DNA of 64,000 nucleotides, from the sequence record OL631479.1; one strand, written 5' to 3'. This document shows, one piece after another, positions 30,144 to 37,147 of this stretch. Numbering within the stretch: the stretch's first letter is position 1; the number at the start of each line of letters is the position of its first letter. Origin of the DNA: Escherichia phage ECML-10. The translations under genes were made by a program, and so were the position numbers. Below the pieces are notes generated by a model. It was not told the origin of the DNA. It saw nothing but the letters and a program-made list of their open reading frames with translations, and did not search any database.

Positions 30144-30221
30144 GTGGTCTCCACGGAGTGATTCGAACACTCGACCTCCTGATCCCAAATCAGGCGCTCT
30201 ACCAAGCTGAGCTACGCGGAG
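30144..30221 (-). tRNA. tRNA-Pro (anticodon UGG)
   Basis: Hand-folded cloverleaf: 7-bp acceptor, T-loop TTCGAAT, anticodon loop UUUGGGA, encoded CCA. Confidence 0.75.
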
Positions 30222-30232
30222 TATTCATTATT

Positions 30233-30307
30233 TGGTGGCCCTGGGTGGAATTGAACCACCGTCTGGCGATTATGAGTCGCTTGCTTGAACCTTCCAGCTA
30301 CAGGGCC
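30233..30307 (-). tRNA. tRNA-Met (anticodon CAU; could be Ile-lysidine type)
   Basis: Acceptor GGCCCTG/CAGGGCC, T-loop TTCAATT, anticodon loop CUCAUAA, CCA encoded. Confidence 0.7.
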
Positions 30308-30308
30308 A

Positions 30309-30384
30309 TGGTGCTGATGGCAGGACTTGAACCTGCAACCTATTGATTACAAATCAATTGCACTACCAATTGTGCTACATCAGC
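30309..30384 (-). tRNA. tRNA-Thr (anticodon UGU)
   Basis: Acceptor GCTGATG/CATCAGC, D-stem GCAC/GTGC, anticodon loop UUUGUAA, T-loop TTCAAGT, CCA encoded. Confidence 0.7.
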
Positions 30385-30390
30385 AAAAAG

Positions 30391-30488
30391 GTGCTAGGTG
30401 ATGGAATCGAACCACCTATGTATTCAACGACTACCTCGTCTATTTTCAGGATTAAAAATCCTCGCCCTTGCCAAAGGGCTTACCTAGC
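30391..30488 (-). tRNA. Atypical tRNA-like gene (~98 nt), isotype unresolved
   Basis: Perfect 7-bp acceptor and 4-bp D-stem, T-loop TTCGATT; anticodon arm has only 4 bp with loop UUUUUAA (UUU) and a ~30-nt variable region. Confidence 0.4.
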
Positions 30489-30596
30489 TCAGTATGTTGA
30501 CCATGTTGCTAGTCGGCGATGACGACTGTAACATTTGATAATCCGGTTCTGCTTCCGGCTTTCGCTTAATTACAAGGTCAACAATATGGCAGAGGA

Positions 30597-30686
30597 TAAT
30601 GGAATCGAACCATCATCGAGTCATCCTCAACGGGACGGTTTTCAAGACCGCTTGAGCACCATTGCTCCCTACCCTCTTTTATAAAC
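30597..30686 (-). tRNA. tRNA-Ser (anticodon UGA)
   Basis: Type II tRNA with long variable arm; anticodon loop CUUGAAA; T-loop TTCGATT; CCA encoded. Confidence 0.65.
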
Positions 30687-30791
30687 AATACTGATAATGA
30701 CACTGATTTTCGAGCAGTTAGTGACTAGTATAAACGACGATAAATATCAATGCCATTATCTGTATGATTTATGCATTTAAAAATATAAATT

Positions 30792-30879
30792 TGGTGGTGA
30801 GTGATGGAGTCGAACCACCAGAATCGCAATGATAACAGATTTACAGTCTGCCCCGCTACCCCTACGGAATTAACTCACC
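30792..30879 (-). tRNA. tRNA-Tyr (anticodon GUA)
   Basis: Acceptor GGTGAGT/ACTCACC, anticodon loop CUGUAAA, long variable arm, T-loop TTCGACT, CCA encoded. Confidence 0.7.
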
Positions 30880-31009
30880 TAAATACTAATATTTAAATTC
30901 TTTTTAAAATAGCTAGTGTTCTCACCACTAACTATGAGGTATCGGTAAAGTGGTTACCGCCACTTGCCGAAGATTTACTCTGCTAAAGTAAGCTACATTA
31001 AAAAGAACT

Positions 31010-31084
31010 TGGCACCCCGTACTGGACTCGAACCAGTGTCAACGGCTTAGAAGGCCGCTGCTTTATCCACTAAGCTAACAGGGC
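31010..31084 (-). tRNA. tRNA-Arg (anticodon UCU)
   Basis: Acceptor with two G-U pairs, D-stem GCTT/AAGC, anticodon loop CUUCUAA, T-loop TTCGAGT, CCA encoded. Confidence 0.65.
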
Positions 31085-31180
31085 ACTGGGTGGCTTTCTT
31101 TTACACCTTAGCCGCCAGAAAAGGTGGGAGACCATGTTTACAATATTACACTGTTAAGCAAAGTTTGTCAAGAAAATATT

Positions 31181-34021: not shown

Positions 34022-34576
34022 TTACTCCCCGCTGTCAATAGCAAGACTCATTGCAATACGGTATGCCTCTTCTAATGGTAAGAGTCTCCCCCACACATCC
34101 CAACCGACATCAAGCTGCCTGCCAAACAACTGTTGTGTGGTTCCGTGAGCATGACCGAACAGTTGGACTGATCCATGAGGCTTTCTGTTCCACTTTGCAA
34201 ACTGGTAATGGCTCATACAGATCAAATTCTTGTTGTGGCGAAGCTCGTAATAATCTACAACCTCGTGATAGAACTCTTTCATAATTCTGACAGTCGTCCT
34301 TGTGTCATGGTTGCCACGAACAAGAATAATATGTCCGTTCAACATATTTAGAATATCCGGGAGTAAGTTGTTGATATTCTTATCATTAGTGCACGCAATA
34401 TCTCCCAAGTGGAACACAGTGTCTGCAGGTGACACAACAGAGTTCCACTCGGCGATGATTCCTGCATTCATACTGTCAAGATTGTGATCATACTGAGATC
34501 TGTGTTTTTGACATGAATCAAACTCCATGACCCGCTGGTGGAGAAAGTGTGTGTCGCTTGTTACAAAGTATTTCAT
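34022..34576 (-). CDS. Calcineurin-like metallophosphoesterase
   Basis: Motifs GDIACTND, GNHD, GHAHG; start at ATG 34576 (RBS GAGGAA) just after kinase gene stop. Confidence 0.65.
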   Translation of the reverse strand: MKYFVTSDTHFLHQRVMEFDSCQKHRSQYDHNLDSMNAGIIAEWNSVVSPADTVFHLGDIACTNDKNINNLLPDILNMLNGHIILVRGNHDTRTTVRIMKEFYHEVVDYYELRHNKNLICMSHYQFAKWNRKPHGSVQLFGHAHGTTQQLFGRQLDVGWDVWGRLLPLEEAYRIAMSLAIDSGE

Positions 34577-34583
34577 ACATTCC

Positions 34584-34994
34584 TCATTTAAGTTTAATGC
34601 AGTTTTTAAGCTGGCGTTCCATACGATCCACAACCCTGTCTGGAACATCATGAATGCTTTTATTACCGTGGCGGTTTTCAACCACGATCACGGTATAACT
34701 ATACCCATGACTGATTGCCATGTCAATATATTCTTGCACATGTTTTTCTTTTGTAAACGTATTACTTACCACGATACGGTCGTATCCCATACGCATCATA
34801 TCTTCTACGTTATCTTTGCACCATTTTGCTGCAAGTGTTACTTTACTTGCATCCCAGTTGTAATTTCCGTCATCGTCGTACCAGAACATGTCGTTCTCAA
34901 AATGTGGATACAGACCTTCTAAAGATAGAGCATTTGCCAGTGTTGATTTGCCAGACCCTGGTATACCACGCACGATATATAGCATTTTAGACAT
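34584..34994 (-). CDS. P-loop polynucleotide kinase-like protein
   Basis: Walker A GIPGSGKST near N-terminus like T4 Pnk kinase domain; start ATG 34994 with RBS GGGGGA. Confidence 0.5.
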   Translation of the reverse strand: MSKMLYIVRGIPGSGKSTLANALSLEGLYPHFENDMFWYDDDGNYNWDASKVTLAAKWCKDNVEDMMRMGYDRIVVSNTFTKEKHVQEYIDMAISHGYSYTVIVVENRHGNKSIHDVPDRVVDRMERQLKNCIKLK

Positions 34995-35022
34995 AGCAAT
35001 CCCCCGTTTTAATTTTAATGAT

Positions 35023-35051
35023 AGTATACCTAACTGTTTTGTTAATTTCAA
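35023..35051 (-). promoter_or_regulatory. Sigma70-like promoter (TTGAAA-N17-TATACT) for kinase/phosphoesterase genes
   Basis: Minus-strand hexamers in divergent intergenic region. Confidence 0.4.
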
Positions 35052-35054
35052 GTG

Positions 35055-35084
35055 TTGACACTAGGTTGTTTGTGTGGCAGGATA
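35055..35084 (+). promoter_or_regulatory. Candidate promoter for RNA ligase operon (TTGACA, weak -10)
   Basis: TTGACA at 35055-35060; -10 region diverged; shares leading GTTGACA with other plus-strand promoters. Confidence 0.3.
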
Positions 35085-35094
35085 GACTGACAAA

Positions 35095-36030
35095 ATGACA
35101 AATGAGGAACGTATGATGAAGTATTTTAATGCAGACGATCTAGTTGACAAAGGTCTTGTAACCAGTCGATATTATCCAGATCTTGGATTAAAGATCTATA
35201 AATATGCCAGAAAAGTATTCTACAACAATCTGTGGCATTTGTCCCCTCGTTTGCTGGAGTGCCGAGGCATTGTTGTCGGTAATGAAGGAAATGTTGTGGC
35301 ATGGCCCTTCACAAAAGTGTTTAACTTGGGAGAAAATCACACCAACCTGCCTGACAATAAGCTTGTGACGGCGGTAGAGAAAAAGAACGGATTCCTCGGC
35401 GTGGTGTCATCTCATAAAGGTGAACTATTGTTCTCAACAACCGGATCTCTTGATTCCCCATATTGTAACCTCGCAAAGGAAACCATCCGGGAGCAATGTG
35501 GTAATTTAGATCTTATCAAGAAGGTTATGGGCAATGAAAACATGACATTCATGTTTGAAATTTGTCACCCTTCAGATCCGCATATTGTTCAGGAAGATCA
35601 TGGCGCATATTTGATAGGTTGCAGATATAATGATTCTGGAATAATGCTGCCAGAAGCAGCTTTAGATGGGATTGCCAAATACCTTGGCGCAAAACGTCCT
35701 CACACTGTGCGTGAAATTCCGTTCAGCTATGCAAAAGAATTGGCTGCAGAAACAAGAGGTGAAGGGTATATGATTCGTAAGCCTTACTACCCTTATGATC
35801 TGCAGCTGAAGATCAAGTCTCCATACTATCTGGCACGGAAGGCCGTAATGAGGGGTAAAGCTTGGAAGATTTGGGATGATGATATCTTTAAACGTGTTGA
35901 CGAAGAGTTTTACGGCATGGTAAACTTCATTCGTAGCAATTACACAGAAGATGTGTGGAACTGCCTACTGGAGCAGGAACGCAGGGAGATACTCGACCAC
36001 TATTTCCACAACGAGGACTATATGCAATGA
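35095..36030 (+). CDS. rnlA: RNA ligase 1 (T4 RnlA-like)
   Basis: LLECRGIVV, FTKVFNLGEN, VEKKNGFLGVV (motif I), GEGYMIRK (motif IV), LKIKS (motif V); matches T4 Rnl1 as recalled. Alternative start ATG 35113. Confidence 0.7.
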   Translation: MTNEERMMKYFNADDLVDKGLVTSRYYPDLGLKIYKYARKVFYNNLWHLSPRLLECRGIVVGNEGNVVAWPFTKVFNLGENHTNLPDNKLVTAVEKKNGFLGVVSSHKGELLFSTTGSLDSPYCNLAKETIREQCGNLDLIKKVMGNENMTFMFEICHPSDPHIVQEDHGAYLIGCRYNDSGIMLPEAALDGIAKYLGAKRPHTVREIPFSYAKELAAETRGEGYMIRKPYYPYDLQLKIKSPYYLARKAVMRGKAWKIWDDDIFKRVDEEFYGMVNFIRSNYTEDVWNCLLEQERREILDHYFHNEDYMQ

Positions 36031-36377
36031 AGAAGTTGATTGTGTGGCTGGATGATTTGAGAGATCCGTCAAATTATGGACTCCCAGACGCTGTTTGGCT
36101 GAAGAATTCCTCCGAGTTTATGGATTTTATTAACGATAAGGGAAAGCTCTACAGACGCGTTTCTGAGTGGCATATGGACAACGACTTAGGAGAAGTATTC
36201 GAAGGATATGATTGCCTATCCATGTTGGAGGAAAAATTTGTATTCGGTAAGCCTCCAGTGGTTGACAACGTGAAGATTTTCGTACATACTTCTAATCCAT
36301 CAGCGGCTCGTAAATTCATGCTTGCAGCTGACTCGTTTAAAAAGTTTGGAATAGAGATTAAACAAAACATCTACTGA
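36027..36377 (+). CDS. Hypothetical protein (receiver-like N-terminus), translationally coupled to rnl and sir2
   Basis: ATG overlaps rnl stop (ATGA); begins MKKLIVWLDDLRDP. Confidence 0.3.
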   Translation: MKKLIVWLDDLRDPSNYGLPDAVWLKNSSEFMDFINDKGKLYRRVSEWHMDNDLGEVFEGYDCLSMLEEKFVFGKPPVVDNVKIFVHTSNPSAARKFMLAADSFKKFGIEIKQNIY

Positions 36378-36385
36378 GGACACTT

Positions 36386-37147
36386 ATGCGACGACTGATT
36401 ATTATCTCCGGTGCTGGTTTGAGCGCTGAATCTGGTATTCCCACTTTCCGATCTGGTAGCACTGCAATGTGGGAGAATTTCAGCATCGATGAGGTGTGCA
36501 ACATCCACACCTTTGCCAAGAACTACTATAAGGTGCATGACTTTTACAATGCACGTCGTGTAGCTCTGGGCAGTGTTGATCCTAACCTTGCACATCTTCG
36601 GATCGCTGAGTGGTATTCCCGCTGGTCTGGTCGTGTGATCAACCTTACCACCAATGTAGATGATTTGCTGGAGCGTGCTGGTGTAAAACATGAAGATATT
36701 TTACATGTCCACGGGTATTTGCCTGAAATCACCTACGAAGATGCTGAAGGTAATGATGTAATTAAAAATATCGGATACACGGAGGTAGATACAGGTAAGT
36801 ATACCTGGGTTAAGCCCAATGTAGTGTTCTTCGGTGAGGTTGCTCCTAAGTATACAGACATGTATGACCTGTTGACATCTCTCACAAGCAATGATATGGT
36901 GATCCTGGTAGGTTGTTCTAACACAGTTATTAATTTTAACTGGGAATTGTTTCCTGCTACTTGTAAAGGCACAAAACTGCTGATTGTAAACAAGTATGAT
37001 TCGCAGAGTGCAGATGGAAGTGGCATTTCACGTAGCGACCTTTATCAATATGAGGATCGCGGGATCCCTGTATGGTTTAACGGTGCTGTTGACGCTTTCT
37101 CTGATAAAGTATTTATTGAAACTGTAGAAAACTTTATGGAACTTTAA
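36386..37147 (+). CDS. Sir2-family NAD-dependent protein (sirtuin-like, no zinc ribbon)
   Basis: GAGLSAESGIPTFR, TTNVDDL, HVHGY, VVFFGE, LVGCSNTV motifs; no CxxC pairs. Confidence 0.75.
   Translation: MRRLIIISGAGLSAESGIPTFRSGSTAMWENFSIDEVCNIHTFAKNYYKVHDFYNARRVALGSVDPNLAHLRIAEWYSRWSGRVINLTTNVDDLLERAGVKHEDILHVHGYLPEITYEDAEGNDVIKNIGYTEVDTGKYTWVKPNVVFFGEVAPKYTDMYDLLTSLTSNDMVILVGCSNTVINFNWELFPATCKGTKLLIVNKYDSQSADGSGISRSDLYQYEDRGIPVWFNGAVDAFSDKVFIETVENFMEL

Follow-up and report, generated by a model that had tools for sequence, protein, structure and literature searches.

A conserved tRNA-shaped RNA with a short anticodon arm and a linker-held extra hairpin in rV5-like phages and their relatives

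Introduction

Transfer RNAs encoded by bacteriophages have recently been shown to act as weapons against bacterial defenses that cut host tRNAs. One host tRNA, tRNA-Lys, is the target of PrrC and RloC. Here we analyzed a gene for a tRNA-like RNA on the minus strand of Escherichia phage ECML-10, an rV5-like Escherichia coli myovirus of the genus Vequintavirus. The gene lies at positions 30392..30488 of a 64,000-nucleotide (nt) stretch of sequence record OL631479.1, hereafter called the window. Among the systems that invite comparison, the PARIS nuclease AriB cleaves tRNA-Lys between nucleotides 40 and 41, and the tRNA-Lys of phage T5 neutralizes PARIS through changes in its anticodon stem (PMC11464382). 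A phage tRNA-Tyr acts against retron-Eco7 (PMC11555353), anticodon-loop variants have been described (PMC10264068), and phage tRNA repair counteracts PrrC (PMC2610378). The ECML-10 RNA resembles these anti-defense tRNAs in its location in a phage tRNA cluster, in its Lys-type loop on an altered stem in the rV5 clade (including the nucleotide 3' of the AriB cut), and in the presence of RNA-repair genes. However, the anti-defense tRNAs are canonical 76-nt molecules that have been shown to be charged or to rescue translation, whereas the tRNA-like RNA is known from its sequence and has a noncanonical arm and a 31-nt extra region. The other members of the family do not look Lys-like.

Class II tRNAs (Leu, Ser, and Tyr) share with this family a five-helix cloverleaf with a 7-base-pair (bp) acceptor stem, a 5-bp T stem, a canonical T loop, and a G18G19-type elbow, together with a hairpin between the anticodon and T arms and a location in tRNA operons. 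In contrast, their extra region is approximately 13 to 21 nt long rather than 31 to 41 nt, and 1 or 2 unpaired nucleotides flank their hairpin rather than 5 to 10 near-invariant ones on each side. Their anticodon arm is 17 nt long rather than 14 to 16, and the tRNA-like family has no Leu, Ser, or Tyr anticodon and carries A8 instead of U8. The tRNA-Sec and allo-tRNA/selC* classes are alike in their long extra arm, in U73 in most members, in triplets that vary between relatives and include UCA, in their occurrence in phage tRNA clusters, and in a D stem capable of 6 bp with a 4-nt loop, a geometry typical of both classes (PMC7609411, PMC5389517). A regulatory or nontranslational role has been proposed for some allo-tRNA-like RNAs (PMC5389517; reviewed in PMC7609411). 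These classes differ in their 8/5, 8/4, or 9/3 acceptor/T branches and longer anticodon stems, compared with 7/5 and a shorter stem here, and nothing in them corresponds to the invariant GAAAA and AUACAUA linkers described below. Membership in tRNA-Sec was rejected because the alignment was forced, with mismatched extra pairs, the branch is 7/5 and not 8/5, and scores against the Rfam tRNA-Sec model (RF01852) were 23 to 37.6 bits across the family, below the gathering score of 47. The identity elements also disagree: the window copy has UUU and A73, and the relatives with UCA have A33 and U73, not G73. Membership in the allo-tRNAs was rejected because the 12-bp branch split 8/4 or 9/3 is absent, all members being 7/5.

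Other small RNAs offer partial parallels. The stable RNAs C and D of phage T4 (species 1 and 2) are small, processed like tRNAs, partly tRNA-like, and encoded within the T4 tRNA cluster; they are larger than the element described here and are not full cloverleaves. YrlA, a bacterial Y-RNA-like RNA with a role other than decoding, has a tRNA-like module next to RNA-repair genes and no free acceptor end. The Rfam YrlA model gave weak matches of 22 to 25 bits (compared with a required 69) on neighboring tRNAs and none on the tRNA-like element. The tRNA-Other of Bacillus cereus (PMC3399842) has a tRNA shape and a nondecoding role, as suggested below for the phage RNA, and differs in being a cloverleaf of canonical size. 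With respect to canonical elongator tRNAs, the phage family has the 7-bp acceptor stem, the 5-bp T stem, the T loop, and a covarying elbow contact but lacks the 17-nt anticodon arm (5 bp plus 7 nt) and a conserved anticodon. In its design, the tRNA-like RNA differs from all tRNA classes described.

Results

An earlier note, made from the letters of the window, had placed an atypical tRNA-like gene at 30391-30488 and left its strand unstated. The gene was found there, on the minus strand, running from G1 at 30488 to the discriminator A at 30392 (97 nt), with CC following at 30391-30390 and then UUUUU. ARAGORN reported a "tRNA-???" with the 4-base anticodon "atcc" at 30390-30488, and in a search of the whole window the Rfam tRNA model (RF00005) gave 35.5 bits (E=9.5e-4), above its gathering score of 29. 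By both tools, the element is tRNA-like and nonstandard. The Rfam alignment uses an AGGA/UCCU stem around a UUUUUAA loop, with a large insertion before the T arm, which is the register that the earlier note had read as four pairs around UUUUUAA. A standard tRNA in another register did not emerge, as the ARAGORN alternative is itself nonstandard (4-base) and is not conserved in relatives. The element occurs once in the window, with 0 copies expected by chance.

The 5' strand of the acceptor stem, GCUAGGU (30482..30488), pairs at 7 of 7 positions with the 3' strand, ACCUAGC (30393..30399), after which comes the discriminator. The D arm, GCCCUU-UGGC-AAGGGC (30464..30479), is supported by covariation, the minimum free energy (MFE) fold, and RNAalifold; it can be read as GCCC-UUUGGCAA-GGGC, with a 4-bp stem, or extended through the invariant U14, U15, A20, and A21 to 6 bp with a 4-nt loop. 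The 15-nt "anticodon" arm (30448..30462) reads AGGA-UUUUUAA-UCCU and is bordered by an invariant G at 30463 and a G at 30447. Its stem has four Watson-Crick pairs, with G opposite G where the fifth pair would be, and its 7-nt loop has U33, UUU, A37, and A38 in place; nucleotide 26 is missing, and U-A pairs could extend the stem to 5 or 6 bp with a loop of 5 or 3 nt. A single-stranded 5' linker, GAAAAUA (30441..30447), leads to the 5-bp extra hairpin of the variable region, GACGA-GGUAG-UCGUU (30426..30440), which is supported by the fold and by a compensatory change in phage Av-05. A single-stranded 3' linker, GAAUACAUA (30417..30425), then joins the T arm, GGUGG-UUCGAUU-CCAUC (30400..30416), which has one G-U pair and a canonical T loop. 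The perfect acceptor, D arm, and T arm of the earlier reading were recovered, the last with this single wobble pair. From the "anticodon" stem to the T stem there are exactly 31 nt, of which approximately 16 are unpaired, and in other genera the distance is 39 to 41 nt. The earlier claim of a length beyond that of known type II variable arms is borne out, and so is the reading as a tRNA-shaped gene that carries an added domain resembling an insertion. When folded by itself, the 97-nt RNA gave a five-helix cloverleaf (MFE -34.2 kcal/mol, z = -4.09) comprising the acceptor stem, a D arm of 6 bp with a 4-nt loop, the "anticodon" hairpin, the 5-bp extra hairpin, and the T arm, and 0 of 200 shuffled sequences were as stable. 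The extent of the gene (30392..30488) is supported by ARAGORN, the Rfam score, the fold, and the family covariation described below.

Homologues were gathered by BLAST with diverged copies and by pattern scans of viral and metagenome collections. This yielded 33 distinct homologues in Vequintavirus, Avunavirus, Seunavirus, Mydovirus, and Henunavirus and in uncultured relatives with ~147-kb genomes, and showed the family to be specific to Vequintavirinae phages and their metagenomic relatives. For the copies in other genera, the best match within the Rfam clan was a subthreshold tRNA-Sec, compared with the 35.5-bit RF00005 score of the window copy. The hosts of phages carrying the element are E. 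coli, Salmonella, Klebsiella, and Erwinia, and the phages, a group that is well studied and easy to handle, include a dozen from the BASEL collection. A scan for exact matches to the conserved 3' core, which would detect only that exact pattern, found 0 in 185,579 bacterial and archaeal genomes, and a cellular counterpart was set aside on that basis. No close paralogue was present among 228 tRNAs predicted in the same loci, and an origin by recent duplication of one of the phage's own tRNAs was rejected.

Annotation of the locus is inconsistent. GenBank labels include "tRNA-OTHER (Asp|Gly)," "tRNA-Lys" (used by BASEL and other annotators), "tRNA-TERM," "tRNA-???(atcc)," or none. The rV5 genome paper lists six tRNAs and omits the element (PMC3606486), and later papers on rV5-like genomes count five. 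We found no description of the RNA in the literature on Vequintavirinae or rV5 tRNA-like RNAs, on PARIS and tRNA-Lys, or on phage tRNAs and anticodon nucleases. The annotation of more than 150 phage records needs harmonizing, and an Rfam family could be built.

Between genera, the core of the element is 72 to 99% identical, compared with 60 to 96% for the adjacent tRNA-Thr and 45 to 65% for the downstream spacers, the last being the alignment baseline. The gene is kept in full in approximately 113 of the 115 rV5-like genomes that cover the region. The element is under purifying selection: it is a real gene for an RNA of tRNA shape, and selection has maintained it. Natural losses do occur. In phage V18 (NC_041937; L005 1145-1245), a deletion that apparently ran through near-identical T arms joined a 5' portion of tRNA-Tyr to the 3' third of the tRNA-like gene and also removed tRNA-Ser, and O157 typing phage 4 retains only 31% of the element.

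The structure was examined by covariation in an alignment of 32 sequences, using the acceptor, D, T, and outer "anticodon" pairs. Of 704 cells, 99.9% were paired, compared with 36 to 51% when partners were slid by 1 to 3 columns, and 11 pairs had changed on both sides. The covariation score was 0.406, compared with 0.160 ± 0.011 in shuffles, and none of 500 shuffles reached the observed value. The acceptor stem was paired in 100% of the family, with double changes at 5 of its 7 pairs, and the T arm was likewise 100% paired, with pair 90-102 being UA in 26 sequences and CG in 6; the branch was 7/5 in all members. The elbow contact between column 18 (equivalent to G19) and T-loop column 95 (C56) was GC in 22 sequences and UA in 10, and was never broken. 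This G-C to U-A covariation points to a tRNA-like L shape. The 4-bp D stem was proven by covariation. The 6-bp D stem with a tetraloop was predicted by the MFE fold and by RNAalifold, which recovered the same overall fold; its two additional U-A pairs are invariant, so that covariation is uninformative about them. Alternative "swapped" tertiary pairs, A8-U14 and U15-A48, compete with the 6-bp D stem, and none of these four nucleotides varies in the family. In the "anticodon" stem, the fourth pair was formed in 33 of 33 members (AU 7, UA 13, CG 12, GC 1). Every member has an extra hairpin, which differs in sequence and size between subtypes. At least four designs occur that are unrelated to one another, and compensatory changes are seen within each, for example CCUCC/GGAGG, CUCUC/GAGAG, and CCCCC/GGGGG; ACGA/UCGU and, in Av-05, ACGG/CCGU; and CAC/GUG and UAC/GUA.

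The "anticodon" arm was 14 to 16 nt long in all 33 members and had the canonical 17 nt in none, with arrangements of 4 bp plus 7 nt, 5 bp plus 6 nt, and 4 bp plus 6 nt. There were 14 different versions of stem and loop, the loops being 5 to 7 nt long depending on closure of the fifth pair. The loop reads CAUCCA, CAGCCA, CCUCAA, CCUCCA, CUUCCA, GUGAUA, CAUCAAA, UAUCAAA, AAUCAAG, UUUUUAA, or UUUAUAA. Across the triplets presented (UUU, UAU, UCC, GCC, UCA, and GAU/UGA-like), no anticodon is shared by the family, and A or C frequently occupies position 33; most relatives have 5 bp plus 6 nt or A33. A loop that changes in sequence as well as length speaks against ordinary decoding by the family at large. 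The rV5 clade alone has A as its discriminator; elsewhere it is U (27 of 33 members) or, in one member, C.

In contrast, the linkers around the extra hairpin are the most conserved parts of the RNA. AUACAUA is invariant in every member, and GAAAA has one exception (GUAAAA in L077). The metagenome scan required part of the 3' motif; a repeat scan used only a 5'-half pattern, and the sole new true member that it returned still has AUACAUA. The distance from "anticodon" stem to T stem is 31 to 41 nt across the family, above that of any class II tRNA, and the extra hairpin is set off from both neighboring stems by 5 to 10 unpaired bases. The middle "anticodon" base distinguishes rV5 (UUU) from its sister clade Av-05 (UAU), while neither of the linkers nor the D and T loops differ between the two; substitutions in this loop were as fast as those in the loop of the extra hairpin, with the linkers frozen.

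The element is the fourth gene of a seven-gene tRNA operon identified by ARAGORN (30145..31084, all on the minus strand), in the order Arg-UCU, Tyr-GUA, Ser-UGA, tRNA-like RNA, Thr-UGU, Met/Ile2-CAU, and Pro-UGG. A consensus sigma-70-like site, TTGACA-17-TAATAT (31143..31171, minus strand), lies approximately 60 nt upstream of tRNA-Arg and, judged by its match and placement, is likely the operon promoter. In genera other than Vequintavirus, the element begins 2 to 6 nt past the CCA that ends the tRNA before it, and 25 of the 33 family members themselves encode CCA. This spacing and the encoded CCA suggest a polycistronic tRNA transcript with ends of the RNase P-substrate type.

Discussion

Our best explanation, which we hold with about even confidence, is that the element would give rise to a processed tRNA mimic, plausibly acting in conflict over host tRNAs, and that the rV5-like copies acquired a tRNA-Lys-like hairpin. 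The conserved business end of such a mimic is best explained as the L-shaped body with the linker-held extra domain, not the anticodon. Judging from its anatomy and position, the RNA would be transcribed within the phage tRNA operon, its 5' end released by RNase P and its 3' end by the usual trimming, with the CCA that most genera encode being completed from CC in rV5. It would then fold into an L shape with a canonical acceptor end and a D/T-loop elbow. The family pattern of a short arm, a changing loop, and constrained linkers suggests that it is not an ordinary codon reader, as do the "anticodon" change between rV5 and Av-05 and the TGA usage of phages with UCA loops given below. Mimicry of tRNA-Lys in a setting of conflict is favored by the match of 11 of 17 arm positions to E. 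coli tRNA-Lys, by the restriction of A73 to the rV5 clade, by the RNA-repair genes of the window, and by the precedents of T5 tRNA-Lys against PARIS and phage tRNA repair against PrrC. More speculatively, the tRNA-like body and CCA end might dock onto a tRNA-binding factor, with the unusual core and extra arm forming a private recognition surface, and a host or phage factor could in this manner be diverted, occupied, or informed during conflict over host tRNAs in infection.

Several observations weigh against this explanation. V18 is a viable isolate without the 5' two-thirds of the gene, so that the RNA is dispensable for plaque formation, at least in the laboratory. The co-occurrence of A73 and UUU represents a single evolutionary event. 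Outside the rV5 clade the loop is not random but follows N-N-(U/G)-C-(C/A)-A, a pattern reminiscent of anticodons for Gly (UCC/GCC) or opal (UCA) together with A37, and some decoding-type or anticodon-binding constraint is therefore possible. We know of no published precedent for a phage tRNA decoy. An RNA-repair cassette lies 3 to 6 kb from the tRNA cluster (34022-37147), but an Rnl1-type ligase like that of the cassette occurs in 732 phage records, many of them without the tRNA-like RNA. A specific partnership with the Rnl1 ligase was therefore rejected, and the cassette is better regarded as context than as a specific partner.

A more specific proposal, which we think doubtful, is that the RNA belongs to an undescribed class of tRNA mimics that may neutralize or sense tRNA-targeting immunity, serving as decoys or inhibitors of tRNA-Lys nucleases in rV5-like phages and having other specificities elsewhere. 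A mimic or decoy would represent a new type of player in the tRNA arms race, and a decoy in particular would be the first dedicated phage anti-defense tRNA decoy, as distinct from a replacement tRNA.

The alternative that survives best, although we consider it rather unlikely, is that the RNA decodes as a true tRNA-Lys(UUU) whose variable arm has been enlarged. Host LysRS would charge it, and it would serve as a spare tRNA whose changed anticodon stem and body let it evade host tRNA-Lys nucleases as the T5 tRNA-Lys evades PARIS. The E. coli LysRS identity set consists of the anticodon bases plus A73, and in the rV5 clade, and only there, UUU in a 7-nt loop is combined with A73. Tolerance of the long arm is not an obstacle in itself, as long-arm tRNAs are compatible with the ribosome. 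The earlier note had suggested a Lys/Leu-type tRNA; the Lys half applies to the loop in the rV5 clade (UUU in 7 nt, U33, A37, A73, and some GenBank tRNA-Lys labels, including those of BASEL), whereas no Leu anticodon fits any register. The above-threshold Rfam score was obtained in the Lys register. Compared with the E. coli tRNA-Lys arm, the sequence of which was taken from PMC11464382, 11 of 17 arm positions match, including G30-C40, A31-U39, and U33-A38. The two loop-proximal stem pairs are identical to those of E. coli, and position 41, beside the AriB cut site at 40/41, differs.

However, a class I body calls for a 5-bp stem and a variable loop of 4 to 5 nt, and the window copy has only four Watson-Crick pairs, a G.G at the fifth, no nucleotide 26, and a 31-nt variable region with approximately 16 unpaired bases. 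No homologue in other genera has the canonical arm of 5 bp plus 7 nt, the anticodon is not conserved, and the nearest sister clade carries UAU with U or C at position 73, which is not known to fit any E. coli identity set. The loop changes as fast as that of the extra hairpin beside frozen linkers, and the gene was deleted in V18. If the RNA were nevertheless a working tRNA-Lys, translation would tolerate a 4-bp anticodon stem together with a 31-nt extra domain, which would be relevant to tRNA engineering.

It is very unlikely, in our estimation, that the RNA is an allo-tRNA-like recoder, charged through its long arm by SerRS or an anticodon-blind synthetase and inserting a "wrong" amino acid at AAA in rV5 and at GGA/GGC or UGA in other genera. 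The long extra arm, the 6-bp-capable D arm with a tetraloop, the mostly U73 discriminator, and the diverse triplets recall allo-tRNAs and tRNA-Sec (PMC5389517, PMC7609411), but the acceptor/T branch is 7/5 and not 8/4, 9/3, or 8/5, and the anticodon stem is shorter rather than longer. In most members, closure of the fifth pair leaves a loop of 6 nt, or position 33 is A; the extra arm stands 5 to 10 unpaired bases from the neighboring stems, unlike Ser and Sec arms; and rV5 has A73, not G73 or U73. Phages with UCA loops also do not avoid TGA: it makes up 26% of their stops, compared with 25% and 20% in others, and a role as an opal suppressor for the UCA-loop versions was rejected on these figures.

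The earlier note had also allowed for a pseudo-tRNA, that is, a decaying, functionless remnant retained only by its position in the operon. The noncanonical "anticodon" arm, the failure of most annotation pipelines to call the gene, its loss in V18, and its partial loss in O157 typing phage 4 would be expected of such a remnant. In contrast, the core is conserved between genera like a working neighboring tRNA while the flanking spacers sit at the alignment baseline, compensatory changes preserve every helix in five or more genera, the single-stranded linkers stay fixed, and most members encode CCA, which makes decay highly improbable.

Scarcely credible is a quadruplet-reading, frameshift-type tRNA, which would use "atcc" in rV5 and, if a closing C-G is left open, the 8-nt loop CCAUCCAG in Seuna/Mydo types: the ARAGORN 4-base call and the central position of AUCC in that open loop are in its favor, but the AUUUU/AAAAU stem of the ARAGORN register is broken without compensation in Av-05 and cannot form in any other genus, where the U-run is absent (the register itself being rejected on these grounds), its formation would destroy the covarying AGG/CCU stem, the two AUCC strings do not occupy homologous positions, A or C would stand at position 33, and C-G closure to a 6-nt loop is thermodynamically preferred.

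Two further proposals were rejected. A kissing contact of the "anticodon" loop with the loop of the extra arm seemed to show compensation (PVP-SE1 type, UCCA/UGGA; 4MG, GCCA/UGGC), but it is absent from most subtypes, and 4-nt matches of this kind arise in 14 to 38% of shuffled loops. No intron excision, whether group I or bulge-helix-bulge, yields an arm of 5 bp plus 7 nt, the arm being too short rather than interrupted. For a group I intron, the insert is in addition far too small.

Neighboring features of the locus

The RNA-repair cassette comprises genes for a metallophosphoesterase (34022-34681, minus strand), a P-loop kinase (34584-35051, minus strand), an RNA ligase of the T4 Rnl1 family (35095-36030, plus strand), a protein with a cREC_REC "cyclic-phosphate processing" domain (35955-36377, plus strand), and a SIR2-family protein (36386-37147, plus strand). 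Homologues of the cREC and phosphoesterase genes lie near the tRNA-like gene in the distant metagenomic relatives L032, L061, and L047, which is weak evidence. Approximately 18 to 23 GenBank records labeled "Campylobacter phage" (MG0656xx) are 98 to 100% identical to rV5-like E. coli phages over the region and the RNA ligase gene, and these records are probably mislabeled or contaminant genomes.

Within the operon, the 98-nt spacer directly upstream of the element (30489-30586, minus strand) has a cloverleaf-like fold (z = -2.6; 3 of 200 shuffles as stable) with a closing stem of 8 to 9 bp (GUUGACC.../...GGUCAAC) and three internal hairpins. Since a canonical tRNA stands directly upstream of the element in other genera, this spacer may be a decayed tRNA remnant. 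The tRNA-Ser(UGA) beyond it (30587-30677) was called by ARAGORN only; it fell below the Rfam tRNA threshold, and tRNA-Sec was its best Rfam match, with 39.4 bits where the gathering score is 47. The tRNA with a CAU anticodon (30233-30307) is Met according to ARAGORN and "tRNA-Ile, codon ATA" in the BASEL annotation, and may be a lysidine-type tRNA-Ile2.

Between tRNA-Arg and tRNA-Tyr lie 134 nt (30876-31009, minus strand) that are absent from many rV5-like phages. In phage Murica, only 4 nt separate Tyr from Arg, and the alignments of most relatives are split into two pieces with 94% coverage. The segment has no Rfam match and folds into a multibranch structure with an 11-bp closing stem (z = -3.0; 6 of 200 shuffles as stable). 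A small mobile insert and a further structured RNA are both conceivable identities for it. In PVP-SE1-type and FENT2-type phages, the sequence 3' of the element (AAACAUNUUAUGUACGGGUUUGAGANUCUUAAA...) is held in common despite differing extra-arm designs (L004 2604-2660, L017, and L023). There, tiny open reading frames are the sole annotation of the 165- to 180-nt gap before tRNA-Leu, which may hold another conserved noncoding element.

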